Positions 3,462-54,033 are shown, counted from the first letter of the stretch. The stretch: DNA of 56,226 nucleotides from a virus (IMGVR_UViG_3300020409_000022:1-56226); one strand, 5' to 3'. Program-made: numbers and translations. The notes: generated by a model from the sequence alone, not told the origin.

Positions 3462-3720
3462 CGATTTATATACAGACGAAAATCCAAAGGGAACGATTAA
3501 GGGATTAAAGTTTGTAACAACTAAAGATGCTGAAGCATCAGTAAGGAAAATAAAGAACTCTGGTAGGTCGCATGCTCATAAAATACAAGCAGCTATTGCA
3601 ATGGAACAAAGAGCAAGAGTTGCTAAAAAATTAGGAGCAGCCGCTGTTTATCGTAAATTTATAAATGCGATGAAAGCAAAGACCAAGGAGAAAAAAAAGA
3701 GTGGCACATCTCGTAAGTAA
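3403..3720 (+). CDS. Small basic conserved phage protein
   Basis: SDLYTDENPKGTIKGLKF...MEQRARV motif. Confidence 0.7.
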   Translation: MSKPRIPRKKGQPAGSKKHSDLYTDENPKGTIKGLKFVTTKDAEASVRKIKNSGRSHAHKIQAAIAMEQRARVAKKLGAAAVYRKFINAMKAKTKEKKKSGTSRK

Positions 3721-4366
3721 TATACCTTTTTTTAAGGTATGGGTTCGTAGAGAATTTACAGCGAACTTTCAGCGATACCATGGAGAGTTTTTACATGGTA
3801 TGGCAGTAGCAGTAACGTCAATGCCAGGAAGAAGTTTGAGTTTTCAAATTATCTTTACTGGTTATGAAGAGGATGAAAATGTACACGGAGGAGCTATGTG
3901 GGCTAGAATGCCTATCACAGCTTTAGTTGGAGATACTCCGTTTGATGAATGGGCTGAGCCAATGCCTAATTATTTGGCACAACCATGGGATTGTTCATCA
4001 CATAATCATTCGGTGTTTGTAATAGAAAGAGCACATTCAACACCATGGATTGCTAAAGTAGACGACCAGTTTTATCCAGCAAAGTATTATTTTACTGTGG
4101 ATTATACGGATAATGAAGTGGCTGACGACCCAGCCCAACATAAACAAAGTCACGTACTAGAATTATTAGATGCGGACAAATGGACAGGCAACATTGTTGC
4201 TTTACCAAACAATCGTGTCAGGGTTACCAACCCAGCATGGTTTGTAACTGGAGAGGGTGCTCCAGATTTTGTACCTAGTCAATGGGTATATAACTCTGAA
4301 ATTAAACATGAGTATATTATGGATAATCAAAGAGTGTTTAATAATTTATATTCTGAGGAGAAATAA
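3701..4366 (+). CDS. Conserved hypothetical globular protein (221 aa)
   Basis: AAGGAG SD before GTG; motifs GGAMWARMPI, QPWDC, HKQSH, ALPNNR. Confidence 0.8.
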   Translation: MAHLVSNIPFFKVWVRREFTANFQRYHGEFLHGMAVAVTSMPGRSLSFQIIFTGYEEDENVHGGAMWARMPITALVGDTPFDEWAEPMPNYLAQPWDCSSHNHSVFVIERAHSTPWIAKVDDQFYPAKYYFTVDYTDNEVADDPAQHKQSHVLELLDADKWTGNIVALPNNRVRVTNPAWFVTGEGAPDFVPSQWVYNSEIKHEYIMDNQRVFNNLYSEEK

Positions 4367-10836: not shown

Positions 10837-11057
10837 TACAAGAGGTGGCTAAAGAACTACTAAAAGTAGTTAACGATAAAAAAACAATGGATGCTTTAGA
10901 AAAGTATATGAACTATAGAGTAGAGGAATTACATAAATTATTAGAGCAACAAGATAAAATATCTGATATTAATAAAGCCCAAGGAGCTATAAAAGAATTA
11001 CGTAGAATAAAAACACTACGTGAAGAAGTAATAGCAAAGGCAAGAAATGGAGCTTGA
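10833..11057 (+). CDS. Small helical protein downstream of portal
   Basis: ATGA overlap; AQGAIKEL motif typical of post-portal small proteins. Confidence 0.7.
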   Translation: MIQEVAKELLKVVNDKKTMDALEKYMNYRVEELHKLLEQQDKISDINKAQGAIKELRRIKTLREEVIAKARNGA

Positions 11058-29381: not shown

Positions 29382-29614
29382 TGGAAATAGACGCAATGTT
29401 ATTTTGGAACATTATCTTAACTATGGTCGTTATACCATTTGGTTGGGCATTTAACAAGATGTTCCAAGAGGTAAAACGTCTACAGATATTATTAAATAAG
29501 ACACGAGAAGAGTATGCACGTAAAGATGATGTAAAAGAAGATATGCATGACATCATGGATGCAATGAAAAGATTAGAAGATAAGCTAGACAAGATATTGA
29601 TGGGAGCTAGATAG
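29381..29614 (+). CDS. Small membrane protein with coiled-coil tail
   Basis: N-terminal transmembrane helix, then heptads ending RLEDKLDKIL. Confidence 0.75.
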   Translation: MEIDAMLFWNIILTMVVIPFGWAFNKMFQEVKRLQILLNKTREEYARKDDVKEDMHDIMDAMKRLEDKLDKILMGAR

Positions 29615-31431
29615 TGGCAGAGGCTAGAAAAAGAAAAATGCAAGAGGGCGGCACTACCATAAGTAATGTAACACCGCCAACTACAACTACCATGGATGTA
29701 GATGAGTATATGGGACAACAGATTACTAATCCTGTAATGCCTCAACAAAGTCAATTTGTTCCTCAGACACAAGCAATACAACCAGGAGAAGAAGTTTCTC
29801 CAGAGGCATATGCTTTACAGGGGCAACCTGATATACCAATATCACAAGCTACAACCACACAAGCACAAGGTCCTGCTGTGTCTCCAGCAGCACAAGTATC
29901 TCCAGCATTAATTGGGACTACAACACCAACAGCGACTGCTCAACAAGGCACAGGACTCACGCAACAAGCTGTAGCACAAGAAGGAGTTGTATCTCCTCAA
30001 GCGTTAGCACAAGCTCAACAAGGAGTTAGTCAAGGACTAGTACAACAAGCAGACATAACTCAAAGACAAGTTACAGCCCCTGAACAAATAACAGGAGCAG
30101 TAGCAGATACATCATTTTTAGCAGGAACTACACCTGCTCAAACAGATTTTGTAAGTCAGGTAGAGGGTGCCACAATGACTGTCACACCAGAAATGACAGT
30201 GCAAGGACAGTTAGCCCGTATATCTCAACAATTTACAGATGGTCAGGTACCATCTTGGGCAGCAGGGGTTGTGCGTAACGCTACAGCAGTAATGGCACAA
30301 AGAGGTCTTGCAGCTTCATCAATGGCAGGAGCAGCTATAACTCAAGCAATATTAGAGGCTTCTGTACCCATAGCAACAGCAGATGCTCAAACATACTACA
30401 ATACTGCTGTTAAAATAATGGACAATCAACAGCAAGCAAACTTAACAAATACACAAAATAATTTAAATGTTTCGTTAGCTAATATGTCTAACAGACAACA
30501 AACAGCTCTAGCGAAAATGCAAGTGCAGGCGGCTCTGGCAGGTCAAACCCTCTCAAATCAACAACAAGCAAATATCCTCAACGCTGAAAAATTTGCCGAA
30601 GCAGCTAATCTTAATTTTACGCAAGAACAGCAGAGAGTGTTTTCTAACTCTAAAATGATGGAAACACTTAATTTGCAAAACTTAAATAATGCACAAACAG
30701 TAGCCTTGTCAAACGCAGCTAATTTTGCTAAAATGGATATGGCTAATCTAAATAATAGGCAACAAGCCATGGTATTAAATGCACAAGGCTTTTTGCAAAT
30801 GGATATGTCTAATTTAAGTAACACTCAACAAACAGAAACTATAAATCAACAAGCTAGATTGCAAACTTTGTTGTCAGACCAAGCAGCCCAAAATGCTGCT
30901 CAAAACTTTAATGCTACTAGTCAGAACCAGGTAAATCAGTTTTTTGAGACATTGGCATCTGATATTAGAAAACTAAACGCAACACAGGCTAACTCACATG
31001 AGCAGTTCAATGCAGGACAAGCTAATGCCTTATCACAGTTTCGTGCTACCATGCAAAATACAAGAGAACAATTTAATACAAAGAATGCTTTAGAGATAGC
31101 CCAAAGTAATGCTACCTGGAGAAGAAACGTAAACACCGCAAACACAGCTTCAGTAAATGCAGCTAATCAAATTAATGCAGCTAATTACTTAGGTATATCA
31201 AATCAAGCATTAGCAAACATTTGGCAACAATATAGAGATGAAGCAGACTATGTATATAATTCATCAGAGAATGCTCAAGATAGAGCATTTAATTATGCTA
31301 TGGCTGTACTTGATGCAAAAGTATCGGCAGACCAGTATGATAAATACTTAGATGAACAATCATCTAGTGCTATTGGTGGTTTTATTGCAGAATTAGGTAT
31401 AGCGGCAATAAATAGAGGAATATTCGGATGA
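29614..31431 (+). CDS. Gln/Ala/Asn-rich internal virion (ejection/pilot-like) protein
   Basis: Long Q/N/A coiled-coil with roughly 11-residue N-x-x-Q-Q periodicity; glycine-rich hydrophobic C-terminus; after tail genes. Confidence 0.7.
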   Translation: MAEARKRKMQEGGTTISNVTPPTTTTMDVDEYMGQQITNPVMPQQSQFVPQTQAIQPGEEVSPEAYALQGQPDIPISQATTTQAQGPAVSPAAQVSPALIGTTTPTATAQQGTGLTQQAVAQEGVVSPQALAQAQQGVSQGLVQQADITQRQVTAPEQITGAVADTSFLAGTTPAQTDFVSQVEGATMTVTPEMTVQGQLARISQQFTDGQVPSWAAGVVRNATAVMAQRGLAASSMAGAAITQAILEASVPIATADAQTYYNTAVKIMDNQQQANLTNTQNNLNVSLANMSNRQQTALAKMQVQAALAGQTLSNQQQANILNAEKFAEAANLNFTQEQQRVFSNSKMMETLNLQNLNNAQTVALSNAANFAKMDMANLNNRQQAMVLNAQGFLQMDMSNLSNTQQTETINQQARLQTLLSDQAAQNAAQNFNATSQNQVNQFFETLASDIRKLNATQANSHEQFNAGQANALSQFRATMQNTREQFNTKNALEIAQSNATWRRNVNTANTASVNAANQINAANYLGISNQALANIWQQYRDEADYVYNSSENAQDRAFNYAMAVLDAKVSADQYDKYLDEQSSSAIGGFIAELGIAAINRGIFG

Positions 31432-32283: not shown

Positions 32284-34129
32284 AGGTTTAATGAGAGGTG
32301 CTGCTCAAGCAGGCACTCGTAGACTACAATCTGTCAATTACCTTGATGAGCAAGGTATAGAACAAATAGCTCAAACTTTCCAAAAGACTGCTCCTAAAAT
32401 ACAAGAAGAACAGCAGAAAGCTCAAAAAGGTATAGATGATATAAATACTTTAGCTAATTCATTAGGTATCAATCCAGATGTTGTTGCTCATACAATGAAA
32501 GTGTATGGCAATGACAGAGCTAAAACTATGACACATCTTATAAATTTAAAGAAACATTTTAAGGGCAAGCCTATACCCGTTACTGCTATAGAGCAGACAG
32601 ACCAAATGTTGACAAAACCAGAAGTTACAGAAGCAAAAGTAGATGCTGTTGTGCCTGAGACAAAGACTGATGATGAATTTAAATTCACAAGCCTGTTTAA
32701 AACAAGAGGCAGAGAAGATTTAATAAATGAATTTATAAATAGAAACCCAGGACTAGACCCACAAACTGTCAAGAATGTTTTAGCTGGTAATTATGATTTA
32801 CCTCAGTTTACACCCACCACACAAATATCCTCTGATGTATTTATGAAAGGATTTGAAGGTGCTACAGGCAAATTAGGCGACTTATATAAAACATCATTTG
32901 CTAGATTTAAGAAATTAGATGACCAACTAATTACAAAGCCTGGAGCTTTTAGTGAGGCAAACAAAAACCTAATTCTTAAATTACGCCCTAAGTTTACAGA
33001 ATTTCAAAATGCTTTAATTGACAATGATAAAACTAAAGCAGACAGTCTTTTTCAAGAAATAACAAAATTAGGCTTTAACAATATTACAACTCTCCAAGAA
33101 GACTCTTCTAGCAAACCAACTGAAAAATATAAAATTATTTTTAATAGAATGGTAGCAAGATTTCCAAATCAAACTAAAGAGTTCCATACACAAAAAACAG
33201 AGGAGTTTTTAGCAAGTGATGTTATATTCAGCGGAAACAGTGCTTTCAAAAAAATCATAGACCCTAATGGAAATGCTGCATTAATTCCAATGTATGTCAT
33301 CAGAAATGGAAATGAAACTATATCTAATGACAAAGTGTATAAAAAGACATTATCATCAATACAAAAAGGTACTAATAACTTTGCTAAAATATTTAGATTA
33401 AGGAACACACTGGAGAAAATTCCTAATGCATTTAGTATAGAGGGGCAATTTAGACAAGGAGTTACTGGATTTCTTGGTTTATTTGGCTCAGAAGATTGGG
33501 CTAAAAGCGTTGGTGGGGCTGATATAATAATGTCTCAACAAGATAGAATATCTTTTGTTTCTTCTGTTAAAGACGAATTATTTGATGACCCAAGGTTATC
33601 AGACCAAGATTTGAGACTTGTATTAAATTACATAGCAATACTTGATAATCCTCTTGCGTCAAAGCCGTTAGCTAGAGCTGCTTTATTAGGCATAGAAAGA
33701 GCATTAGTGAACAGCCAGGCTATGAATATAGCTCAACTATATCCTAACCTTACAGCCGCGGCTTACGATAGTGACGGAGACATAGACTTTAAGAAGGACA
33801 GCGTTGCAGTTAGGCTACATAATAATCTTATGACTGCTGCATTTGGTCCTAATCATAAGAAAAAGTATGAAAAAATGAATGCTAAACAACAAGAGAGATA
33901 TAAGTTAATAGCTCTGCAAAATTACAAGGTCGTTCAGAACTCTGTTGGTGCTGTTAATGCTTTCCAAAGTAATGTGGACAATGCTGAATTTAAATTCAGA
34001 AGTAAGAATTTATTTGATATAACAAAAGCTCCAAAGTTTAGTACAGCAGCAGTAGGACATGCAGATGCATTTAATAAAGTACTGAAAGAATACGAGGAAG
34101 TAAAAGCAAAGAGGTTACAAGAATCGTGA
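32270..34129 (+). CDS. Putative internal virion protein (619 aa)
   Basis: AGGAG SD; helical; position typical of podoviral ejection proteins. Confidence 0.7.
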   Translation: MVSFRGLMRGAAQAGTRRLQSVNYLDEQGIEQIAQTFQKTAPKIQEEQQKAQKGIDDINTLANSLGINPDVVAHTMKVYGNDRAKTMTHLINLKKHFKGKPIPVTAIEQTDQMLTKPEVTEAKVDAVVPETKTDDEFKFTSLFKTRGREDLINEFINRNPGLDPQTVKNVLAGNYDLPQFTPTTQISSDVFMKGFEGATGKLGDLYKTSFARFKKLDDQLITKPGAFSEANKNLILKLRPKFTEFQNALIDNDKTKADSLFQEITKLGFNNITTLQEDSSSKPTEKYKIIFNRMVARFPNQTKEFHTQKTEEFLASDVIFSGNSAFKKIIDPNGNAALIPMYVIRNGNETISNDKVYKKTLSSIQKGTNNFAKIFRLRNTLEKIPNAFSIEGQFRQGVTGFLGLFGSEDWAKSVGGADIIMSQQDRISFVSSVKDELFDDPRLSDQDLRLVLNYIAILDNPLASKPLARAALLGIERALVNSQAMNIAQLYPNLTAAAYDSDGDIDFKKDSVAVRLHNNLMTAAFGPNHKKKYEKMNAKQQERYKLIALQNYKVVQNSVGAVNAFQSNVDNAEFKFRSKNLFDITKAPKFSTAAVGHADAFNKVLKEYEEVKAKRLQES

Positions 34130-37100
34130 GTGATGTACAAATATTAAATAAATTATTTCCTGAAGATACAACAAATAATCAGACCTTAGCTGACAAGATT
34201 GTAAAAGGTACAACGGACAAAAGTGAAGAAGAGCAAATGAAAGGTGCTTTTGGAATGGGACCTCTTGGTAAAGTAGCCTTGCCTGCACGTTTGGAAGATG
34301 CTCAAATATTAGAAGTACAACCAGGAATAGTTACAAGTGTGAACGTGCCTACGCAAGAAGGACCTTTTGGAATAAAATCTAATGTAAGGTACGCTAGAGA
34401 AGGGGATTTTGAAAGAAGTCAAGAAACTGTTGAAAAGATTAAATTACAAGAGCAAAACAAATATGCCACAAGAATAAATAAACTAAAGACAGAAGCAGGA
34501 TTTAAAGACGACAAAATTGACATATCTGATTTTACTCAAACTAGCTTTTTTGGTATAAGTCCAGCAGAAGAAACAGAGACAACTAAAGTTCTAAACTCAT
34601 ACCCAGGCTCTCAACAAGCTGAACTTGCTTTTGTTGATGACAATGACGATTATTTAAAATGGTTAGAAGACACAGTAGGAAAAGACAACTTTAAAGTATT
34701 TTTTGATAAAGACGCTTCTTTCTTAGAGCCTAAAGCATACGTATCCATAAAAAATCCAGAGACAGGAGAGTTCACTCCATTTTCATCTGTAACTAAAACT
34801 TTTGGGGATGGGCTACTTCGATTCGGTGCTACTTTAGCTTACGAAATTCCAACTTATGCTGCTAACGTAGCTGTTGCGACAGCCGTTTCAGCTCCTTTAC
34901 TTGCTATACCTGTTGCAGGTATACCTCTTGCAACATTAGCTTTTACTTATACTTTATATGCTGGAGGAAAAGGAAGAGAAAGATTAAGAGAGTATGTAAA
35001 AGAAGAGTTAGGAATAAATGAAGATGCAGATAAAAATTTATTTGAAAACATGGTTAGACTTATAAATAATGCTTTAGATGTAACAACAAGTCCTGGGGGA
35101 GGCACTTTTAGAGAAGAATTGGCAGGACTTGCAGACGCTATACCAGGAGGATTTTACTTCAAAAGAGGATTAAAAAATGCAGCAGAAAAAGCTAAGTTAA
35201 AATTTTTAGAAAGAGTGGATGCACAAGCTAAAGAAGGAGAGTTCCCATCTGTAAAACCTGCAATGAGATTTCAAGAGCAAACTCAAACAGGAGGAAGGCT
35301 AGACATAGGTAAGCCTCTTGACAAATTCTTAATAACAAATTTAACACCTAATAAAATTTTAGAGAGATTTCAAAATATTTCTTCTCAAGTATCTGTAGTT
35401 ATACCTTCTAGGATAAAACAACAAATGAACTCTGTTGTGGAATACATTCAAAAATATAAAGATAACGCAGGAAAAGGTAATTTTGAACAATTTAGAAAAA
35501 CTTTAGATGATTTAGGCACTTACTTAAAAGACGCCAGAACTAAAGTCAGTGAAATAGATATGAGAAACTTAGGAACTTCTTTAGTTGAATTAGATACTAT
35601 GTTTTTAACTTTGCGTAAATTTGAATCTGATGCATTATATAAAAATGTGTTTGATAAAACAAAAAACTCTGTGTATAACTTATCAACAATTAGAGAAGCT
35701 CTTCCTGATATATACAAAGCTATAATACCTACGAGACAAGGGGATGAAATAGTACCAGAGGTTCCTATAGCAGGTAAGCAAGAAAACTTAATTAGAAATG
35801 TTGTGAGTCAAATTGCTACGTTAGGAAACAAAGATGGAAAACTCACTAGACAAGCGGTGGTGTCAGCGATAAATAAATTTAAAAAAGCAAACCCAGACTT
35901 TGCTGGTGTGAACTATGCTGATGTCAAAACTCCTGCAGAGTTACTACAAATGTATGCAAGTTACTTTGGATACTTAGCAAGAGATGTATATGGTAGTGCA
36001 GGCACAGCGATAAACCTACCTTTAGCACAAACTGCTATGCAATTCAGAAACATTTTCTTAGACTTAATTGCAAAACCTGATAAAAATATACCTGGACTTG
36101 CTGAGGCTCTTAAGAAAGCTAATTCTTTTTACAAAGAAACTTTTGACAAAACTACCATGGAAACACAAGTAGCTTTACGTAATGCTATGAAAGGACCTGT
36201 AAAACAAGAACCAGGACAATTCATAACTAAGATAATAGGAAGTAAGACTGGAACAGCTCCAACTGAGTTTTCTACTATTACAATCGACAACATAGGATTT
36301 ATGAACGATTACATACAGAAAGAGTTAAGAAATCTAACTGATGAAAAAATACAAGCCTTAATAAAAAGAGGAATGTCAGATGAACAAATTAAATCAGGAA
36401 CAAGTGCTGTTGCAAATCTAAAAACTTCATTTAATGCAGTCATAGGCAACAAAATAAATAATATAACTGATATAAAAACAGGCAGACAAGGCACTGCTCA
36501 AGAAGTTATAGATTATATAAATAGCTTTGATGATAAAGCATTAGAAGTGCTGGGACTAGTTAAGAGAAATCCAGACGGCTCTATTAATAGAGATGCAAAA
36601 AATAAATTAATAGAAGATACTTTAATATTACAGGATTTAGCCTCTGGAGGTTTTGTCAATATAACAACATTAAGTGTTAACACTCCATTTGGTAAAATAA
36701 TAAAGGGCTATTTTGAAGATGATAAAATGCTTGTTACAAACTTTGAGAAACTACTTAGAGTTGCAAGACAAAGTAAAAAGAAACCCATTGACGTTAAACC
36801 AGTTGAAAGACTCAAGCAAACTGCTGAAGTAAATAATATTAGAAAAGGACTAATAGAATACATATTCTCAGTTGACAGCGGAGTATTCAAACAAATAGAT
36901 AAAAATACTGCATTTGGTAACGCAGGCGACTTTAGAATTGATGCCGCTAAATTACAAGAAGTAGTTGAAAAAATAAATGGAATAGATGTGTTTAAGCAAA
37001 TATTTAGTAAAAAAGATTTTGATATTTTAAATGGTTTAAATCAATATACTTTAACTATATCAAAAGGTATGAATGATGTCGGTGCATCTTTATCTGGTGC

Positions 37101-37434
37101 TCAGATTATAGGTGGAATAATAGATGGTGTCACTAACTTAGAGGGTGGCAAATTTGTAAAAGGTATTGCAAGATTAGCAGGACAAAATAGATTAGCTAAA
37201 ATATTTGTTAGTGATAAAGTATCAAATTTATTTACAGGAGCATCTTTACAAAACATAAGAACAAACAAAGAAAAATTAAAAGAAATATTCCTTGGTAAAC
37301 AAAGTGTAGCAGCTATAATATCTAATATAGCTTTAGACCCTTCAATTCAAGGTGAGGGGGATGATTCTGCCGAGGGACAAACTCAACTTAGCACTAGAGA
37401 ATTAGAGCTACTTAAGAAGATAACCCCTAATTAA
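34126..37434 (+). CDS. Large putative internal virion protein (1102 aa)
   Basis: Last gene of the structural arm; hydrophobic Ala-rich hairpin near residues 230-280. Confidence 0.72.
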   Translation: MSDVQILNKLFPEDTTNNQTLADKIVKGTTDKSEEEQMKGAFGMGPLGKVALPARLEDAQILEVQPGIVTSVNVPTQEGPFGIKSNVRYAREGDFERSQETVEKIKLQEQNKYATRINKLKTEAGFKDDKIDISDFTQTSFFGISPAEETETTKVLNSYPGSQQAELAFVDDNDDYLKWLEDTVGKDNFKVFFDKDASFLEPKAYVSIKNPETGEFTPFSSVTKTFGDGLLRFGATLAYEIPTYAANVAVATAVSAPLLAIPVAGIPLATLAFTYTLYAGGKGRERLREYVKEELGINEDADKNLFENMVRLINNALDVTTSPGGGTFREELAGLADAIPGGFYFKRGLKNAAEKAKLKFLERVDAQAKEGEFPSVKPAMRFQEQTQTGGRLDIGKPLDKFLITNLTPNKILERFQNISSQVSVVIPSRIKQQMNSVVEYIQKYKDNAGKGNFEQFRKTLDDLGTYLKDARTKVSEIDMRNLGTSLVELDTMFLTLRKFESDALYKNVFDKTKNSVYNLSTIREALPDIYKAIIPTRQGDEIVPEVPIAGKQENLIRNVVSQIATLGNKDGKLTRQAVVSAINKFKKANPDFAGVNYADVKTPAELLQMYASYFGYLARDVYGSAGTAINLPLAQTAMQFRNIFLDLIAKPDKNIPGLAEALKKANSFYKETFDKTTMETQVALRNAMKGPVKQEPGQFITKIIGSKTGTAPTEFSTITIDNIGFMNDYIQKELRNLTDEKIQALIKRGMSDEQIKSGTSAVANLKTSFNAVIGNKINNITDIKTGRQGTAQEVIDYINSFDDKALEVLGLVKRNPDGSINRDAKNKLIEDTLILQDLASGGFVNITTLSVNTPFGKIIKGYFEDDKMLVTNFEKLLRVARQSKKKPIDVKPVERLKQTAEVNNIRKGLIEYIFSVDSGVFKQIDKNTAFGNAGDFRIDAAKLQEVVEKINGIDVFKQIFSKKDFDILNGLNQYTLTISKGMNDVGASLSGAQIIGGIIDGVTNLEGGKFVKGIARLAGQNRLAKIFVSDKVSNLFTGASLQNIRTNKEKLKEIFLGKQSVAAIISNIALDPSIQGEGDDSAEGQTQLSTRELELLKKITPN

Positions 37435-38805: not shown

Positions 38806-40737
38806 TTACTTTCCTATGTCAACTATTTCACAACTGTCTGCCGTGCAAGCAAGAGTTTGATTACCTACAGTGTTGTCTTCAGTTTCATAATCTTTTAACT
38901 TAGTCCAATCTATGAACTCTGGCATTTTTTTACTAAACTCTTTGTAATCTTTTTCAGAGCAATCTTGATATGGGGCTTGTTCATACACCATATCGTTACG
39001 TGGTAAAAAAGACAATCCAGAAGCTATATCAAAGTTATCATATATCCAACTGCCAGTTTTAAGCCACTCATCTTTTGCCACAGATACAGTTACAGATGGT
39101 TTGTGTTCACACCAGTTTTCTGCATATATTTTCCAAAAATCAAGTTGCTCTACTGCTGACATATCATCTCTTGTAATACAATCTTCGGGAGCTTTTATAG
39201 GAAAACTAAATACTGCGTTTTCTTTGCTCCACCCATCTGTTTCCCAAGGTATATTGTTATCCATCATAAATCTTGTGAGAGGGTCTTTTTTATCTCCACG
39301 AACTGTACGGATATAATACTTACTATGTCTAGCATGAATACCAGAAGCAGAATCTGTGAGTTGTGAAACTGTTCCAGAGGGTTTTACACAAGTAATAGCA
39401 GTTGATTGAGGAATGCCTAATAATTGTGCATATTTTTTGTTTGTTTCAACGGCAACCTCACGTAAAGTTTTCAATACTTCAGCTAAATTAGTTCCCTGGT
39501 CTGTGCCATTTGTAATAGCATTGTCCATTATACCCGTCATAGAGACCCCAAGCAGTCTTTCTTCTTCAGTATTCTTCTGCCACACCTTACGTAAGTAAGG
39601 AAAGTGAGTCAAAGTAGACTGGAAAGTTCCTATTATTGTAGCAGTGTGAACTTTAGCCTTTAGAGTGCTTAAGTTATCATTTCCTCGTACAATAACTTCA
39701 GATAAATTACAGAACTGGTAAGGTCTCAATATTATCTCGCTACAAGGATTAGTACCAAAGTCATACTCTGCATCTCTTCTGCCATTTTCTAATGCTTTAT
39801 TTTTTGCGGCACCTCTGTAGAACATGCCTCTTTCTCCAGTTCCAGACTCTGCAAGAGCAATCCACTCTCTCATAAATGTGTATGGGTCTGGTTTTTCTGT
39901 GTAAGCAACTGAATTATTTGACATTTGTCTTTGAGGTTCTGTTTTATAGAACTCTCCAGTTTTAGCGTGGCGCATTCTGTCGTCAGATAAATTAGACAGA
40001 CTAATCATTGCAGAACGTCTAACTCCGCCAGATACAACAACTTCACCAACTTTACACATTAAGTCGTGGCACTCTAAACTTGATAACTTTCTGCCACTTG
40101 CATCTCTAAATATCTTAACTGTGAACCTAAATAAATTATCCAAAGGTGCAGGTCCAGATGCTCTACCACCAAATATTTTTAATTTAGCTCCTGCAGGTCT
40201 AATTAAACTTAAATCCCATTTAGGTATTTCCCCTGCCCATAATAAAGCTAACAACTTACGGAATGCCTTTGCCCACCCCTCTTTGCTATCCTTGACAATT
40301 ATTGTTTCTTCTGTATCAAAAAGTAAAGCAGGTACTTCTGGAAGTTTACTTATAAAATTTCTTTCAACAGAAAACCCTACACCAGTTCCACACATAAGGA
40401 TATACATGGCTTCGTCAAATGCTTTAGGGTCATCAACGGGTAAATAAGAACAATTATACCCTGCAGTATTATCTCTATCTAATGCTTTACCTGCCGTCAT
40501 CATGGCTCTCATGGAAGGCATAACTTCTTGATGCATTATAGATTGTCTTATGTTTTCTTTTACTTCTTCATCTAAAGTAAAATTATGCTTTGTTTTCAGA
40601 TGCTTAACCATAAAATCTATATATCGACTTATAGTTTCGTGCCATTCTTCTCTTCTGTTTTCATCATCTATCCACCTAGCATACCTAGATTTGTGAATGA
40701 ATTGTTGGTAGTATGTTGGTAATGTTACATTGCTCAT
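38806..40737 (-). CDS. nrdJ: Class II (adenosylcobalamin-dependent) ribonucleotide reductase
   Basis: PSMR, NCSY, TNPCSEI, TCVKPSGT, C-terminal ACTADSCEI; no beta subunit or activase gene in the genome. Confidence 0.93.
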   Translation of the reverse strand: MSNVTLPTYYQQFIHKSRYARWIDDENRREEWHETISRYIDFMVKHLKTKHNFTLDEEVKENIRQSIMHQEVMPSMRAMMTAGKALDRDNTAGYNCSYLPVDDPKAFDEAMYILMCGTGVGFSVERNFISKLPEVPALLFDTEETIIVKDSKEGWAKAFRKLLALLWAGEIPKWDLSLIRPAGAKLKIFGGRASGPAPLDNLFRFTVKIFRDASGRKLSSLECHDLMCKVGEVVVSGGVRRSAMISLSNLSDDRMRHAKTGEFYKTEPQRQMSNNSVAYTEKPDPYTFMREWIALAESGTGERGMFYRGAAKNKALENGRRDAEYDFGTNPCSEIILRPYQFCNLSEVIVRGNDNLSTLKAKVHTATIIGTFQSTLTHFPYLRKVWQKNTEEERLLGVSMTGIMDNAITNGTDQGTNLAEVLKTLREVAVETNKKYAQLLGIPQSTAITCVKPSGTVSQLTDSASGIHARHSKYYIRTVRGDKKDPLTRFMMDNNIPWETDGWSKENAVFSFPIKAPEDCITRDDMSAVEQLDFWKIYAENWCEHKPSVTVSVAKDEWLKTGSWIYDNFDIASGLSFLPRNDMVYEQAPYQDCSEKDYKEFSKKMPEFIDWTKLKDYETEDNTVGNQTLACTADSCEIVDIGK

Positions 40738-48372: not shown

Positions 48373-48373
48373 G

Positions 48374-48423
48374 AAAAAAAATCCCCAAGACTACAGATAA
48401 GGAGGAAAAAAGTCTTGGGGATT
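48374..48423 (-). terminator. Terminator ending the early region; 13-bp stem, 18-nt loop
   Basis: Minus strand AATCCCCAAGACT/AGTCTTGGGGATT followed by a T-run. Confidence 0.75.
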
Positions 48424-48432
48424 ACTTATTGG

Positions 48433-48717
48433 TTACTTTGAAACTTTAGTGATGACCTCTTGTTTCTTAGCAAACCTATAAGTTCTGTAGTAGTTTGGGT
48501 GTTCGCAGCCTTCATGCTTTGGAACTTCCAAACCAAATATGTCTTCGAAAAAATATTGAACAAAAAGTAAATCACACATTTGGTCATAAGAAACTGGAAC
48601 ATTGTCCTTTACCATATTGGTTACTTCTTTTAGTCTGTTCATATTCTCAATTAATCTTTCTTTTGTTTCTTCATCAAGATTAACTATATTTTTCATAAAT
48701 TTGTCTGATATTTGCAT
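48433..48717 (-). CDS. Hypothetical protein
   Basis: 94 aa; AGGAG SD. Confidence 0.7.
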   Translation of the reverse strand: MQISDKFMKNIVNLDEETKERLIENMNRLKEVTNMVKDNVPVSYDQMCDLLFVQYFFEDIFGLEVPKHEGCEHPNYYRTYRFAKKQEVITKVSK

Positions 48718-48726
48718 AATACTCTC

Positions 48727-48813
48727 CTATAAATTTGCAACTGTTAAAAGACAAGCCCACATGGTAGCAACCACAAGGGCACCTACAAATAAACTAATAA
48801 ACCATTCATACAT
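48727..48813 (-). CDS. 28-aa hydrophobic peptide (not in ORF track)
   Basis: MYEWFISLFVGALVVATMWACLLTVANL; AAGGAG SD. Confidence 0.55.
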   Translation of the reverse strand: MYEWFISLFVGALVVATMWACLLTVANL

Positions 48814-48955
48814 ATTTAGCTCTCCTTAATTTTTGCATTGAACATTTAAAACAATGTAAATAATGACTAAAGAAAAACATTTTGGTAACTTCAAAAGTTT
48901 TCCCACAAGATGCACATTTATGTTTGGCATTAGTGTCTATAACTACTGTATTCAT
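48806..48955 (-). CDS. 49-aa C4 zinc-finger peptide (not in ORF track)
   Basis: CASC...CFKC; AAGGAG SD; ATGA overlap with upstream ORF. Confidence 0.6.
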   Translation of the reverse strand: MNTVVIDTNAKHKCASCGKTFEVTKMFFFSHYLHCFKCSMQKLRRAKYV

Positions 48956-49161
48956 GGCAACTCCTTTTCTGCTATGGCTTTATATATTTCTTCTGTTTCT
49001 AAATTTTTCATATACTCTTTGGCACTCCTTTCATTTACATGAGTATATACCTCAAAGCCGTTTGAGTCAAAAACACAATAATAATCTTTACAACCACTAC
49101 CTCGAATAACCTCAAGGTAATGGTTGTCTGTGGCAAATAGCACATTCGGAGGTAACGACAT
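48952..49161 (-). CDS. Hypothetical protein
   Basis: 69 aa; TAATG-coupled to the peptidase. Confidence 0.65.
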   Translation of the reverse strand: MSLPPNVLFATDNHYLEVIRGSGCKDYYCVFDSNGFEVYTHVNERSAKEYMKNLETEEIYKAIAEKELP

Positions 49162-50534
49162 TAGAAGTCAAACCCACGATTGTAAAGACTAGCCTCAGAA
49201 TCTTCTTCTACAGATTGCCCAGTACAATCTTCTATGCCTTTGTCGTACCCAGCATCATAGGTATCTACAACTAATTCTGCTATATCATTAAAAGACATAT
49301 CTTCATTAATCATATGATACTTGACTCTATCTCTCTTTTGTTGCTCTGACTCTTTTTCTTGAAAACCCTCTGTTGGGTCAAATGTAAGTTTCTTCACAAC
49401 ATTGTTAGCCTTGTCAATAAGTGATTGATACTTGTTTCTAGGAGTTCTCACAGTTTTAGTTGACCTAGTAAACTTGTTATCGCCCATACTGTACAAATTG
49501 CTACGATAGTTACGACCATAAGTGAATCTGGATTGCTTTTGTCTGACACATGGAAGTTTGTCCCATTCCATCTTGAGTAAGCTAGGAATCAAATGAACTT
49601 CTAACCACTCCAAGTCAAACTGCTCATCACGAGTGTGCTGACTTTTGTAGCCAACTGCAATATTAGTACACTCTTGTATCAAACCAGTGTAGTTTGCAGA
49701 ATCTGTAAAACTACCAAAAGTAGATGGTTTCATTTGTTCCTTTGGAGGAAGAAACGCATTCATCTGTTCACAAAAAGACTCAGCAAATTTATCAGAACAA
49801 CAAGTGCCACCACTTTGACGAGTGATTACATCATTGTATCCATATCGGTCAAAAGCAATACAGTAATTCATACCTGCCACAATCTCTGGTGTTTCTTCAC
49901 TAATATAGGTAGAGCCGATACCTCCACACTCTTCGCCAACATGAAATACATACAGACCATCAATACCATTCTCAATAAGTTTGCACATAATGTAACAACC
50001 AAGTTTGTCATCAGCACCAAGCACAGTTGGAGACATAACAGTTTTTTGCACAACTCTTACCTTGTTAGCTTTGAAATCTTTAGCTGACATACTAGATAAT
50101 TCTTTCTCAGAATATTCTTTGTCGCCCTTACCAACAAAACCGATATCAACATCATCAAAACTAGCTTTGACATACTTGTCATCAGATATGTGAAGGTTAA
50201 TCAAAGTCTGGTCATCATCATGCACAGTATCCATGTGAGAGCTAAACATAACTTTACTCGCTTTGTAGTCGCCTACATGAACAATTAAGTTACCTTTTTT
50301 GTCTACCATGATATCGTCTGTGTATTTACGAATATGATTAGACAAAATGTTACGAACTATAGACTCATTCTGTGTACTTCCATGAGAGGAAGCATTTGTC
50401 AACAAGTCAAATAGTAAGACATTCATGTCTTTCCCTCGTTTAACTAAAGGCATATCCTTTATGTTTAACTTCTCTTCTTTTTCATGGTTGTAAAGACCAC
50501 CATAATAGCCATTATTACTTAAGTAATGCATCAC
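49161..50534 (-). CDS. M20/M28-clan co-catalytic zinc peptidase
   Basis: SHMDTVH, LGADDKLG, GEECGG, AFDR, TDS, VGY..QHT..E. Confidence 0.88.
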   Translation of the reverse strand: MMHYLSNNGYYGGLYNHEKEEKLNIKDMPLVKRGKDMNVLLFDLLTNASSHGSTQNESIVRNILSNHIRKYTDDIMVDKKGNLIVHVGDYKASKVMFSSHMDTVHDDDQTLINLHISDDKYVKASFDDVDIGFVGKGDKEYSEKELSSMSAKDFKANKVRVVQKTVMSPTVLGADDKLGCYIMCKLIENGIDGLYVFHVGEECGGIGSTYISEETPEIVAGMNYCIAFDRYGYNDVITRQSGGTCCSDKFAESFCEQMNAFLPPKEQMKPSTFGSFTDSANYTGLIQECTNIAVGYKSQHTRDEQFDLEWLEVHLIPSLLKMEWDKLPCVRQKQSRFTYGRNYRSNLYSMGDNKFTRSTKTVRTPRNKYQSLIDKANNVVKKLTFDPTEGFQEKESEQQKRDRVKYHMINEDMSFNDIAELVVDTYDAGYDKGIEDCTGQSVEEDSEASLYNRGFDF

Positions 50535-52582
50535 TTTTCTCCTTTGTTAGTGATTGTTATATTGTTTCTAATTTTTGCGACATCAATGCCTGGAAGAAGT
50601 ATGTCACTGAAAAATTCATCAAATGATTTATTTGAAAACTCTTCAATAGCATTTCCCTCCATGCTCACCATATCAAACTCCACGCTGTCGCCAATGGAAT
50701 CTAGGGATACATATTTTATACTGTAAGGAACACTAATTCTCTTTCTCACAAAAGTATCTTGTTTTGGCATACCACGAGTATTGTCGTGATATGGCAGAAG
50801 CTGACAAAAATTATTAATTGATGTTAGCTTGTTTGAAAACACAAAAGGTCTTGAAAGACCAGAACCTATAAACTGCACCTTTAGTTCTTGACCATCTGGT
50901 GCATACAAGACATCTCTAGCACAATAATTGTGATAAGATATAAAGTAATCACCCTCTGTGTCTGCCCAAGAAAAAGGAACATAAGTGTATATGTCGACAT
51001 TATTGATAGCAGCTTGTAAGTTACTCACATAGCCACCTTGACAATACAGTTGTATAACTTGTTTACTGCTTTCATCTCGTCTTCTTTGGAACTCTGGCTG
51101 ATTAATCCATTCCATGTGACTTGATGAATGCCAAGTCATTTGACCATCTTCCTCAGCACAGAAAGAACCACAATACAGTTGACCATCAGCAGTTCTCATA
51201 AGTTCTTCGGGTTCATCATATACATCTCCACAGTTGACACATTGCACCTCTTGGTTACCTCTGCCATAAGTATACACACCTCTTGTTGATGATACATCTG
51301 GAGTGAACGCACTTCTTCTGTACTTGTAACCAGAGTTTGTAGATGAGGTCTTGATAAAGTACTTGTTACACAATCTTTCATCAGAGTAAATATCTCTCTT
51401 CAAGTTGTTGAACAGTACAAAATCAAATTCTTGCGTTTCCTTGTTGTACTTGCCAATTATATATCTACGAGGCAAAGTGTCAAAGTAAGGAAAAGGACAA
51501 GCAGCAACTCCATCAAACACAGCTTGAGGCATAGAGAACTCTAGTACTTCACTAGCTTTGTAAAACACTTCATCTCTAACTTGGTATACCCAATCATCAC
51601 CAGAGAAAGGCTTGTATACAACTCCGTGTTTCTTAAGTTCTTCTTTCATTCGGTCTTCGTATACATGCTTGTTGTAGTAAATCCTAACTGCATACTCTTG
51701 TCCACCCACTTCATAAGTAAGACACCTAGCAAGAACAGTAGTCCCTCTTGAAATGTAATAACCCCAAACTTTAGGACAGTAAGCATAGAACTCCAACGGA
51801 TGTCTGTCGGCAGGCAAAGCAAATCCATTACGAGAATCCATACAAGATTGTGGAGAATCTTTACCACCATACTTGTACATATCGCCATAATGTTTGACAA
51901 ATTCTTTGCCACCACTAGCAAATCGGTAAACCTCAACTGGCTTGTAAATATCCATCATTTTTTCTGCCATGTTGTCAACCAAAGTAGCATTAAGAGGTTG
52001 GTTATCTTTATCAACAACACACCTAGCCAAAGCTCTAGTCAAACTCATGTGAAGTCGTTTTGACAGAGTTTTACTACCTCTGTAAAATGGCAACCACCTT
52101 TGTTTCAAAGTTTCATCTGCAAGATTGTCTACAACTTTCTGTTGCATAACAGAAGTGAAATGAGGAAAAAATGGATTCTCATTTGTCAGCCTATGCCCGT
52201 TGTTCTCATGCCCTTTGTAGTCATCAAGTTGTAAGTTTGGAAAAGCAATAGCTCCCTCTGGAGGAGCATCTTTTCCATTAGACCAGTTAAATATAACTGG
52301 ATATAGAAACTTAAGGTTGACAGAGTTCCAATAGCGATTGTTACCCTTTTGACATGCACGATAAGCGTCTTCAACTTGTTGAGTGAACTCAGTAAAAGGT
52401 TTAGCAAGAATGTATAGCTTTCTTGAGATAGCCACTTGTATTGGGTGAATAGTCTCTTTCATAAATACAAAATGGTCTTTATTCAAACCATTGTGTGAGA
52501 TATATTGAGTCAGTTCATCATTAAGTTTTGTTCTTCTTGCAGTATGTTCTTTAGGATTAATTGATGCAATTCTGGGCATCAT
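50531..52582 (-). CDS. Large unknown early protein with SCM motif and zinc finger (683 aa)
   Basis: QSCMD...LARCL...RIYY...PYFDT core; CVNC...C..FC finger; coupled to the peptidase. Confidence 0.8.
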   Translation of the reverse strand: MMPRIASINPKEHTARRTKLNDELTQYISHNGLNKDHFVFMKETIHPIQVAISRKLYILAKPFTEFTQQVEDAYRACQKGNNRYWNSVNLKFLYPVIFNWSNGKDAPPEGAIAFPNLQLDDYKGHENNGHRLTNENPFFPHFTSVMQQKVVDNLADETLKQRWLPFYRGSKTLSKRLHMSLTRALARCVVDKDNQPLNATLVDNMAEKMMDIYKPVEVYRFASGGKEFVKHYGDMYKYGGKDSPQSCMDSRNGFALPADRHPLEFYAYCPKVWGYYISRGTTVLARCLTYEVGGQEYAVRIYYNKHVYEDRMKEELKKHGVVYKPFSGDDWVYQVRDEVFYKASEVLEFSMPQAVFDGVAACPFPYFDTLPRRYIIGKYNKETQEFDFVLFNNLKRDIYSDERLCNKYFIKTSSTNSGYKYRRSAFTPDVSSTRGVYTYGRGNQEVQCVNCGDVYDEPEELMRTADGQLYCGSFCAEEDGQMTWHSSSHMEWINQPEFQRRRDESSKQVIQLYCQGGYVSNLQAAINNVDIYTYVPFSWADTEGDYFISYHNYCARDVLYAPDGQELKVQFIGSGLSRPFVFSNKLTSINNFCQLLPYHDNTRGMPKQDTFVRKRISVPYSIKYVSLDSIGDSVEFDMVSMEGNAIEEFSNKSFDEFFSDILLPGIDVAKIRNNITITNKGEK

Positions 52583-53148
52583 TCCCTCCCTTCAATTATA
52601 GAAAACATTGCTTGTCCTCGTAAAGCCACAACAGAACCAGATGCAATTTCAACAATTCTATCGTGAGCGTCATCATATCCATCTACTGCAAACTCAACAT
52701 CAAGTTGCCTAGTTAGTTGCATAGCAAACACTTTATTAGGATAGCTTTGATGTCTGTCGAATAGCAGAAACAAGTGAGGTCTGCCCTTGTCATCTAACTT
52801 ATCTTTTACTGAAATAACTGGACAGTTGACAGTATTCTTAAGATAATCCTCAGACAACATAAGAATCTTTGGAGTATCAAGCATATTGATTGTCACTTGT
52901 CCATAGCCAATAACTATGACATCTTTACCAGTACTGTGACTTCGTGGCGTAACAGTAGCAAAAGCATGCAATGGTGTGTGACCATCTAGTCGAAAGCCAA
53001 ACACAAAATCATCATTTCTGCCCATAGCGACATACTTTCTGCCATCTGAAGTGCCACTTGATACATACCTAAATACAGACCCAGCTTTTAAGTCTGTGCG
53101 TTTACATTGTTTTCCTACAAGTTGTAGAATAATTTTACTAGATAACAT
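52579..53148 (-). CDS. Hypothetical beta-rich protein
   Basis: 189 aa; AAGGAG SD; coupled to the 683-aa gene. Confidence 0.75.
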   Translation of the reverse strand: MLSSKIILQLVGKQCKRTDLKAGSVFRYVSSGTSDGRKYVAMGRNDDFVFGFRLDGHTPLHAFATVTPRSHSTGKDVIVIGYGQVTINMLDTPKILMLSEDYLKNTVNCPVISVKDKLDDKGRPHLFLLFDRHQSYPNKVFAMQLTRQLDVEFAVDGYDDAHDRIVEIASGSVVALRGQAMFSIIEGRE

Positions 53149-53590
53149 ATTGATTTCTCCTTTTTGTTTCAGTTAAATGATATCTTCTGTCTAAATCACC
53201 ATCAAGCAATCGCTTGAGAGCGAATGAGTTGTAAGCAAAAGTCTCGGTCTTTAGGCTAAAGTTAGCACCAGCATTGTGGTCATCTGTGAAATACTTAACC
53301 ATTTCATTCCATTGCTTTTGAGCAATAGCCAGATAATAGCCTAGAGTTGCATCAGTTGAGAGAACATCACCAATCTCATTAGCATTGCACAACACAATAG
53401 TGTCCATGATTCTTCTCTTTCTGTGATACCAGTAGTAGTATTTTCTGCTATTGTCTAAGTCATAGGCAAGCATTCTAACTTTATACTTGCCATCATTGAA
53501 ACCATCAATTTTGCCGAGCAATCTAAAAGCATCACATCTGGTGCTATAGTAGACTTGCACAACTTTACCATCTTCAAATCGTCTAGGCAT
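53138..53590 (-). CDS. Hypothetical protein
   Basis: Start MPRRFEDG at 53590 with GGAG SD preferred over track start 53653. Confidence 0.7.
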   Translation of the reverse strand: MPRRFEDGKVVQVYYSTRCDAFRLLGKIDGFNDGKYKVRMLAYDLDNSRKYYYWYHRKRRIMDTIVLCNANEIGDVLSTDATLGYYLAIAQKQWNEMVKYFTDDHNAGANFSLKTETFAYNSFALKRLLDGDLDRRYHLTETKRRNQYVI

Positions 53591-53840
53591 TTTTGTCTCC
53601 CAGAGTTTTTGATAGTTCGTGGTCGTAGTTTTTTGGACTACAGCCAACTTCATAGACTTGTTGCCTAGTGGTTACGGGTTGGTATGCACCTTTGTGCAAC
53701 GGAATACTAGCGTAAGTATTCTTAATACTATAATCCATAGCAGAAGCACAAGTAGTACAAAGATGAGCGAAGTGCTTAGCGACAGACCTACGCTCAATAG
53801 GAATGTCGGTGTAACATTGTGTACATTCATAATATGTCAT
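53583..53840 (-). CDS. DksA/TraR-type C4 zinc-finger protein
   Basis: CTQC-x3-IP-x-ER-x10-CTTC; GAGGT SD. Confidence 0.65.
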   Translation of the reverse strand: MTYYECTQCYTDIPIERRSVAKHFAHLCTTCASAMDYSIKNTYASIPLHKGAYQPVTTRQQVYEVGCSPKNYDHELSKTLGDKNA

Positions 53841-53861
53841 AATCCTTTACCTCGTGAATGT

Positions 53862-53937
53862 TGGTGATGCCTGGAGGATTCGAACCTCCGTTGCCGCTGT
53901 GAAAGAGCGATGTCCTAGACCACTAGACGAAGGCATC
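53862..53937 (-). tRNA. trnE: tRNA-Glu (anticodon UUC), CCA encoded
   Basis: GATGCCT/AGGCATC acceptor stem, D arm, TCGCT-CTTTCAC-AGCGG anticodon arm, GGAGG-TTCGAAT-CCTCC T arm, ACCA end; 76 nt. Confidence 0.96.
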
Positions 53938-53961
53938 AGTTAGTTATTTATTTACTCTTAT

Positions 53962-53990
53962 ATAATAGCAAAACCCCGTCTGCTATGCAA
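53962..53990 (-). promoter_or_regulatory. Early sigma70-type promoter upstream of the tRNA
   Basis: TTGCAT, 17-nt spacer, TG-C-TATTAT; near copy of the promoter at 56137-56165. Confidence 0.75.
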
Positions 53991-54003
53991 ACAAACGGGG
54001 CTT
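53970..54003 (-). terminator. Terminator hairpin overlapping the tRNA promoter
   Basis: Minus RNA GCCCCGUUUG...CAGACGGGG followed by UUUU; G-U pairs favour the - strand. Confidence 0.65.
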
Positions 54004-54033
54004 CTTCGGGAGGAAACTTATGGTGAAAAGTAT

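Follow-up and report, generated by a model that had tools for sequence, protein, structure and literature searches.

Two adjacent genes on the minus strand of an uncultured viral genome, IMGVR_UViG_3300020409_000022:1-56226, form a conserved, translationally coupled pair that is gained or lost as a unit. This genome is an IMG/VR virus record of 56,226 bp that is ~98% complete, and we refer to the whole analysed stretch as the window. The first gene of the pair encodes a 683-amino acid (aa) protein with a Ser-Cys-Met motif (the SCM protein), and the second a 457-aa two-metal peptidase. We tentatively read the pair as a co-inherited two-enzyme host-takeover module, in which a GNAT-like transferase and an aminopeptidase or deacylase would share an amino-group substrate. 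KP34-like Klebsiella phages (312 to 370 records) carry the pair in their conserved core, as do Pectobacterium and Vibrio podophages and an abundant lineage of marine phages, and the existing annotation of its two proteins goes no further than “hypothetical” and “putative peptidase.” With a GNAT-like fold, invariant motifs, and a strict partner, a concrete hypothesis that can be tested is now at hand for the SCM protein, one of the largest early proteins of these phages that have yet to be characterised.

The evidence for the pair comes from related genomes. A 12-sequence alignment of the SCM family retrieved 23 related viral contigs (the full 50-sequence alignment is too divergent to find the loci), and each of them has a homolog of the peptidase gene after the SCM gene. 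Primase, helicase, and polymerase genes come next in the 21 loci that reach that far. Measured from the SCM stop codon, the first start codon of the peptidase gene falls between -23 and +16 nucleotides (nt) in 21 of the 22 loci resolved; the outlier, at -104 nt, probably reflects the rule of using the first start codon and not a true spacing. Since both proteins are conserved at the protein level in every contig, the genes are real and not chance open reading frames (ORFs). Homologs of the three genes upstream are present in part of the set: the zinc-ribbon gene in 14 relatives, the gene for a 171-aa protein in 16, and that for a 189-aa protein in 10 (the last by tblastn). Identity among relatives is 23–33% for the SCM protein, 39–49% for the peptidase, 55–69% for the primase, 69–82% for the helicase, and 62–75% for the polymerase. 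The SCM protein thus diverges fastest, which fits a host-facing role.

The partnership extends well beyond this marine group. The peptidase matches 370 phage records (Klebsiella 230, Pectobacterium 51, Vibrio 42, and others), and the SCM protein of phage KpIITR008, used as a tblastn query, matches 312 records of the phage collection. Counted by genus, SCM and peptidase matches number 231 and 230 for Klebsiella, 42 and 42 for Vibrio, 10 and 10 for Escherichia, and 4 and 4 for Shigella; the figures of 17 and 51 for Pectobacterium arise because the KpIITR008 query barely detects that branch. Outside the 23 contigs, adjacency was seen directly in four loci from Klebsiella KP34-like, Pectobacterium, Vibrio, and Rhizobium podophages, those of phages PP90, KpIITR008, and VP93 and of Rhizobium phage Pasto, each with a “hypothetical protein” of 516–713 aa immediately before the peptidase. 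A hidden Markov model (HMM) of the SCM family matches the proteins of KpIITR008 (1.3e-8), Pasto (2.3e-7), and VP93 (1.6e-5), and the PP90 protein joins the family through KpIITR008 (BLAST 3e-11; phrog_13313 3.8e-13). All four proteins (PP90 orf08, KpIITR008 gp23, VP93 ORF6, and Pasto gp004) keep the SCM motif, the arginine of the predicted strand β3, a PYxD motif, and the zinc finger; R-x-Y is kept in three of them and reads K-F-Y in Pasto. Also in Pasto (L028, 1450-3519), the SCM gene comes directly after an ArdA-like antirestriction gene and an integrase gene lies shortly past the peptidase, which places the pair in an early, anti-defence-type neighbourhood. Pelagibacter phage HTVC033P (MZ892993.1, L031), the nearest cultured relative, has neither the SCM gene nor the peptidase nor the three upstream genes; only small ORFs are found upstream of its primase.

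The KP34p10/KP34p11-type early pair of Autographiviridae, annotated as phrog_6980 or phrog_13313 (“unknown function”) with phrog_4191 (“peptidase”), resembles the pair in the window in two respects. The motif set is the same (SCM, R, RxY, PYxD, and CxxC..CxxC), and so is the order of large protein, peptidase, small ORFs, primase, helicase, and polymerase. However, identity is ≤20%, and the window protein matches neither phrog_6980 nor phrog_13313. The window phage is moreover an HMO-2011-type marine podovirus and not a member of the Autographiviridae, and its peptidase carries an extra C-terminal tail of ~110 aa. A hypothetical protein and a putative peptidase are listed among the conserved early or core genes of KP34-like and PhiM1-like phages, and the relevant parts of those articles assign them no function (PMC4411677; PMC6115819). 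Our literature search returned genome-description papers only, and no functional study of the pair was found among them.

The SCM proteins form, by sequence comparison, a real, phage-only family. HMMER, run exhaustively against 1.84 billion cluster representatives, yielded 87 relatives at E≤1e-3, of which 27 reach E≤1e-10 and 15 reach E≤1e-30; they are mostly 500–700 aa long and share a core at residues ~110–400. A profile search of a 5.8-billion-protein set gave only six proteins, all without Pfam domains, and a structure search of BFVD gave 23 uncharacterised phage proteins at E≤1e-3, among them proteins of Klebsiella phage KpV48, Vibrio phage DE17, Pectobacterium phage Nobby, and a Pseudomonas phage. 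The 683-aa protein itself has no match in Pfam, PHROG, or NCBIfam, none by tblastn against 50,697 phage records, and none when used as a single query against the viral contigs; a nucleotide search of the phage collection with the region was likewise negative. Bacterial and archaeal genomes scanned with the 12-sequence alignment, whose patterns reach close relatives only, gave no relative. Longer fused forms of the protein were sought and none was found, which is weak evidence. Some candidate identities could be set aside. A PcfJ-like identity (PF14284) was suggested by protein-atlas feature similarity of 0.83–0.84, but that profile has no match at E≤10 in the window or in five records carrying SCM-family members. 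Atlas matches to EcoRI_methylase (similarity 0.91, 168 shared features) and to PBECR4 were judged to be due to chance.

From its N-terminus, the 683-aa protein consists of a helical and basic region, a GNAT-like core, a β-rich extension with the PYFD motif, a putative FCS-type zinc ribbon, a small α/β domain, and a low-confidence tail. The motifs picked out in the initial annotation, namely SCM (246-248), ARC (285-287), RIY (300-302), PYFD (365-368), and the zinc finger, all lie on invariant or near-invariant columns of the family. In the 50-sequence alignment Y236, S246, C247, R286, P365, D368, C448, C451, and C471 are invariant, and M248, P262, P270, G274, A285, R300, Y302, F349, P352, P363, and Y366 nearly so (per-column conservation counts were taken over 83 sequences). 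A basic segment at residues ~163–187 is conserved as well (W163, R168, G169, R176, and R187). The family consensus of the finger is CxxCG..G..FCSxxCA. Only one of the 50 members is matched by zf-FLZ and only one by zf-FCS, and in profile searches the ribbon weakly resembles L24e and MYM fingers (E 0.002–0.01).

Structure prediction and fold searching give the core of this protein a transferase-like, specifically GNAT-like, fold, with modest scores and no agreement from sequence profiles. The full-length AlphaFold2 model has a mean predicted local distance difference test score (pLDDT) of 78, exceeding 90 over most of residues 10–400, and a domain model of residues 140–445, built from 83 sequences, reaches a pLDDT of 90.6 and a predicted template modelling score (pTM) of 0.82. 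In the model, segment 214–342 runs β1, α1, a long conserved loop with S246-C247-M248, α2, β2, and β3 (with A285-R286), followed by β4 (ending in R300-x-Y302), α3, α4, and further strands toward P365-Y366-x-D368. As predicted, this follows the mixed α/β order of GNAT proteins (β1-α1-α2-β2-β3-β4-α3-β5-α4-β6). Searched against the Protein Data Bank (PDB) with Foldseek, the full-length model matches only chains of the GNAT superfamily, with a best E of 1.7e-3 and probabilities of 0.96–0.99, and none at E≤1e-3; for the domain model FemX comes first (3e-3), followed by AAC(3), RimI, and ATE1. The protein is thus like the GNAT N-acyltransferases (AAC(3)-I, RimI, and Gcn5) in the predicted fold order of residues 214–342 and in that its top structural matches are all GNATs. 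It is unlike them in its long conserved SCM insertion between α1 and α2, and in that the core is set within a 683-aa multidomain protein. On the basis of the predicted model, we would class the SCM family as a divergent branch of the GNAT fold whose obligate partner is a peptidase.

FemX, L/F-transferase, and ATE1 deserve separate comment, as these could point to an aminoacyl-tRNA donor. Ranked by Z, the list of structural matches is headed by AAC enzymes, and FemX and ATE1 are not set apart from ordinary GNATs, so that such a donor is neither favoured nor excluded. No FemAB, Leu_Phe_trans, or ATE family profile matches the window protein or the 50 family members, and the tRNA gene of the unit is not conserved. 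Some GNATs, of the TacT and TmcA types, act on tRNA, aminoacyl-tRNA, or other RNA, and the core might similarly modify RNA, with the zinc ribbon and the basic N-terminal helices binding it. The L24e, MYM, and FCS resemblance of the ribbon, the conserved basic segment, and the presence of aminoacyl-tRNA-binding FemX and ATE1 among the Foldseek matches are all consistent with this; we regard an RNA-directed enzyme as improbable.

Several points weigh against the two-enzyme module that we favour. GNAT motif A forms a pyrophosphate-binding loop, Q/R-x-x-G-x-G/A, between β4 and α3. This motif was not found between β4 and α3 of the SCM protein, where residues 303–308 read Y-N-K-H-V-Y; across the family the commonest residues in the six columns are S, S, N, G, E, and Y, with Gly the commonest in one column only (15 of 83). 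A reaction dependent on coenzyme A (CoA) is therefore not supported. No GNAT profile from Pfam, NCBIfam, or PHROGs matches the 683-aa protein, and none of the 50 family members has a GNAT family match at E≤0.01. Taken together, the missing CoA loop and profile set this protein apart from the canonical GNATs that depend on acetyl-CoA. Pro accounts for seven of the most conserved family columns, and these conserved prolines may be structural. A grouping of the invariant residues at one site would follow from GNAT topology. Lastly, more distantly related peptidases in Thermus phage P23-45 and at a locus of an uncultured jumbo phage (L030) have no SCM partner.

Part of this evidence could be taken to mean that the GNAT-like domain is not catalytic at all. 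The 683-aa protein would then be a pseudoenzyme or adaptor that recruits or regulates the peptidase, or binds a host or replication factor, and the chemistry would be the peptidase's alone. The absence of CoA motif A and the many invariant Pro columns agree with such a role, as do the tight translational coupling and the constant position directly upstream of the replication genes. We give it a modest chance and no more, because the polar residues S246, C247, R286, R300, Y302, and D368 are invariant across families that are ≤20% identical, a pattern more typical of an active site.

The second member of the pair is easier to place. The peptidase matches phrog_4191 (“peptidase”) at 2.3e-63 and exceeds the Pfam cut-off for Peptidase_M42 (29.7 bits against 23.2), whereas M20, at 14.9, stays under its cut-off of 24.6. 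The best matches in a PDB sequence search are M42 TET aminopeptidases, over short stretches and with E 2.6e-5 at best. Residues H100-x-D102, D175, E201-E202, D229, and H300 are invariant in 19 peptidase sequences, and the same seven are near-invariant in 26 sequences that include those of PP90, KpIITR008, VP93, and Pasto; roles as five metal ligands and a catalytic Glu were assigned by motif order. These residues mark the protein as an intact MH-clan two-metal hydrolase. Its nearest family is that of the M42 aminopeptidases, and its resemblance to M20 deacylases is weaker. It shares the H-x-D, D, E-E, D, H ligand set of the M42 enzymes (TET, FrvX, and PepA) and differs from them in being very divergent. 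The initial annotation had named it an M20/M28 co-catalytic zinc peptidase. Since M42 and M20/M28 share the MH clan, “co-catalytic zinc peptidase” was right and the ligands are indeed intact; the narrower assignment gives way to an M42-like one. The C-terminal extension of ~110 aa (residues ~345–457; 49161-49500) has an acidic end and is absent from the Autographiviridae homologs. In addition, three records of uncultured jumbo phages of 636–735 kb (LR756501.1, LR756502.1, and LR756504.1) each contain four to six separate places that match the peptidase, and the single such locus inspected, L030, carries no SCM-family ORF.

An acylating enzyme next to a hydrolase of this clan also brings to mind the protect/deprotect chemistry of ArgA and ArgE. 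By analogy, the substrate of the GNAT-like protein could be the amine of a metabolite (an amino acid, polyamine, cell-wall precursor, or nucleotide-linked amine), which it would N-acylate and which the MH-clan enzyme would deacylate. The GNAT fold is frequent in small-molecule acetyltransferases, in keeping with the lead of AAC enzymes by Z, and the peptidase has weak NCBIfam matches to M20 deacylases: [LysW]-lysine hydrolase (9.6e-5), N-acetyl-ornithine/lysine deacetylase (0.009), and DapE (0.015). However, every NCBIfam match of the peptidase is far under its cut-off, and its best matches are to M42 aminopeptidases. The unit holds no other metabolic genes, and the SCM protein, with its 683 aa, several domains, zinc ribbon, and fast divergence, has more the look of a factor directed at macromolecules. 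We therefore consider a small-molecule pair unlikely.

The initial annotation went further and tied the pair to a neighbouring tRNA gene: Glu-tRNA from this gene would serve to glutamylate a target, and the peptidase would remove or prime the glutamate. Its two other elements, a transferase-like fold and the co-occurrence of SCM protein and peptidase (all 23 viral loci and four podophages), have held up; the tRNA-Glu link has not, since the tRNA is unlinked in relatives, which the initial annotation had itself named as a refuting outcome. The tRNA-Glu(UUC) gene is the one tRNA that ARAGORN finds in the window. Among the 23 relatives, four (L009, L015, L020, and L023) have a tRNA-Glu(UUC) immediately before the zinc-ribbon gene, and four others (L004, L006, L008, and L010) carry a tRNA-Trp elsewhere, between the zinc-ribbon and 171-aa genes. 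No tRNA was found in the remaining 15, of which L011, L013, and L021 have <350 nt upstream and are uninformative. The two Autographiviridae loci scanned, PP90 and KpIITR008, have none either. Most likely, the tRNA-Glu gene is an incidental insert that varies among relatives and lies outside the conserved module. Across related phages, different single tRNAs occupy two intergenic spots of the same unit, as would be expected of a tRNA insertion hotspot.

The glutamylation model retains some appeal, in that the tRNA lies within the same unit, Fem, L/F, and ATE transferases have a GNAT-like fold, and Pfam M42 takes its name from glutamyl aminopeptidase. Against this must be set the patchy distribution of the tRNA and the lack of any FemAB, Leu_Phe_trans, or ATE profile match. 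Use of Glu-tRNA by the SCM protein is unlikely, and the model as a whole we regard as very improbable.

We therefore return to the host-takeover module, which can be outlined as follows. The pair sits in what looks like a host-RNA-polymerase-type transcription unit, directly upstream of the primase, helicase, and DNA polymerase genes. Both enzymes would act on free amino groups of one substrate. This would most likely be a protein or peptide of the host (or of the phage), with its N-terminus or lysines as the sites. An acyl or aminoacyl group would be put in place by the GNAT-like protein, possibly by way of Cys247, and the peptidase would trim an N-terminal residue or take off the acyl group, with a host-takeover or remodelling function as the outcome. 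In this outline we infer the catalysis, the donor, the substrate, and the order of the two steps. Should the SCM protein prove to be a transferase that uses a donor other than CoA or a Cys intermediate, the known chemistry of the GNAT fold and of phage host takeover would be widened.

A more specific and more daring version can also be put forward. Here the aminopeptidase would expose a new N-terminal residue on selected host proteins, and the Cys-dependent GNAT-fold transferase, with its missing CoA loop, would cap or extend it by an acyl or aminoacyl group, steering host N-degron proteolysis. If this is true, targets would be redirected to, or shielded from, that pathway, a takeover mechanism undescribed for phages and one that would be present in hundreds of therapeutic Klebsiella phages. 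We think it a long shot.

There is a functional precedent for a phage acetyltransferase fold tied to proteolysis. Rac (LUZ19 gp28), a GNAT encoded by a phage, is described as setting off the cleavage of the alpha subunit of host RNA polymerase (PMC7552054), and, like the pair discussed here, it links an acetyltransferase-fold protein to proteolysis in host takeover, in phiKMV-related podophages. Rac is small, belongs to the canonical GNATs, and has a pocket for acetyl-CoA; its gene comes after that of the phage RNA polymerase, and the protease it relies on is an unidentified host enzyme (PMC7552054). In the window, the fold is divergent and the peptidase is encoded by the phage. The comparison is one of function only, by analogy, and no homology is claimed.

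The layout of the unit is given in Table 1 and agrees with the initial annotation: the tRNA-Glu gene, a zinc finger gene, two unassigned ORFs, the SCM gene, and the peptidase gene form one minus-strand unit, a single promoter precedes the tRNA, and the coding genes run down to a hairpin and U-run where a terminator had been placed at about 48400.

Table 1. Features of the transcription unit carrying the SCM-peptidase pair, listed from its upstream end (window coordinates)
Feature	Position	Strand	Evidence or remarks
Hairpin, terminator of upstream unit, overlaps promoter	53970-54004	-	15-bp stem, -22.1 kcal/mol, z -5.2; also in relatives
Sigma70-like promoter	53962-53990	-	TTGCAT (53990-53985), 17 nt, TATTAT (53967-53962), TG upstream (extended -10)
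tRNA-Glu (anticodon UUC), variable insert	53862-53937	-	ARAGORN
85-aa C4 zinc-ribbon protein (CxxC..CxxC), weakly DksA/TraR-like	53583-53840	-	Matches below curated cut-offs
171-aa protein, without family match	53138-53653	-	
189-aa protein, without family match	52579-53148	-	
683-aa SCM-family protein	50531-52582	-	
GNAT-like core of SCM protein, residues 214-342 (S246-C247-M248 loop, R286, R300-x-Y302)	51557-51943	-	Fold searches, conservation
FCS/TRASH-like zinc ribbon of SCM protein, residues ~446-478 (C448, C451, C471, C475)	51149-51247	-	
457-aa MH-clan two-metal peptidase (M42-like, phrog_4191), ~110-aa C-terminal extension	49161-50534	-	
69-aa ORF	48952-49161	-	Weak phrog_27461 match only
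49-aa zinc-ribbon ORF	48806-48955	-	Matches below cut-offs
94-aa ORF	48433-48717	-	Homolog at another place in L020
Intrinsic-terminator-like hairpin and U-run, end of unit	48373-48423	-	13-bp stem, -19.9 kcal/mol, z -4.8

Adjacent ORFs of the unit overlap by 1–11 nt; the one exception is the 94-aa ORF, which follows a gap of 88 nt. The closing terminator directly precedes the genes for primase, DnaB-like helicase, and DNA polymerase. Alignments with homologs of the 171-aa protein begin at residue 13–22, and its true start is probably Met22 (53590).

The promoter is conserved. In 13 of the 14 relatives inspected, a hairpin and a promoter precede the zinc-ribbon gene or its tRNA-Glu, the promoter having the form TTGCAY or TTGCGT, a spacing of 17 nt, TAT(T/A)AT, and a TG before the -10 box. 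This supports a single host-polymerase-type promoter for the unit, which, going by its position, may be expressed early. The hairpin and the promoter are in fact a combined element: the loop and 3' arm of the hairpin hold the -35 box (TTGCAY) of the next promoter, and the U-run and extended -10 box follow. This terminator-promoter arrangement is conserved across relatives (window 53962-54004; L004-L022, upstream of the zinc-ribbon gene).

With regard to the genome as a whole, the DNA polymerase is nearest to those of HMO-2011-type marine podophages, with 46% identity to that of Pelagibacter phage HTVC033P and ~40% to those of Roseobacter CRP phages and Puniceispirillum phage HMO-2011. The plus strand carries the structural genes, up to ~37.4 kb, and the minus strand the early and replication genes, reading from the right end. 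Three large ORFs of the structural arm are without a PHROG match (939 aa, 11047-13866; 605 aa, 29614-31431; 1102 aa, 34126-37434). The window also contains a ferredoxin-like auxiliary gene (phrog_3704; 3701-4366) and a ribonucleotide reductase gene (phrog_367; 38806-40737), both of which are typical auxiliary genes of marine phages.

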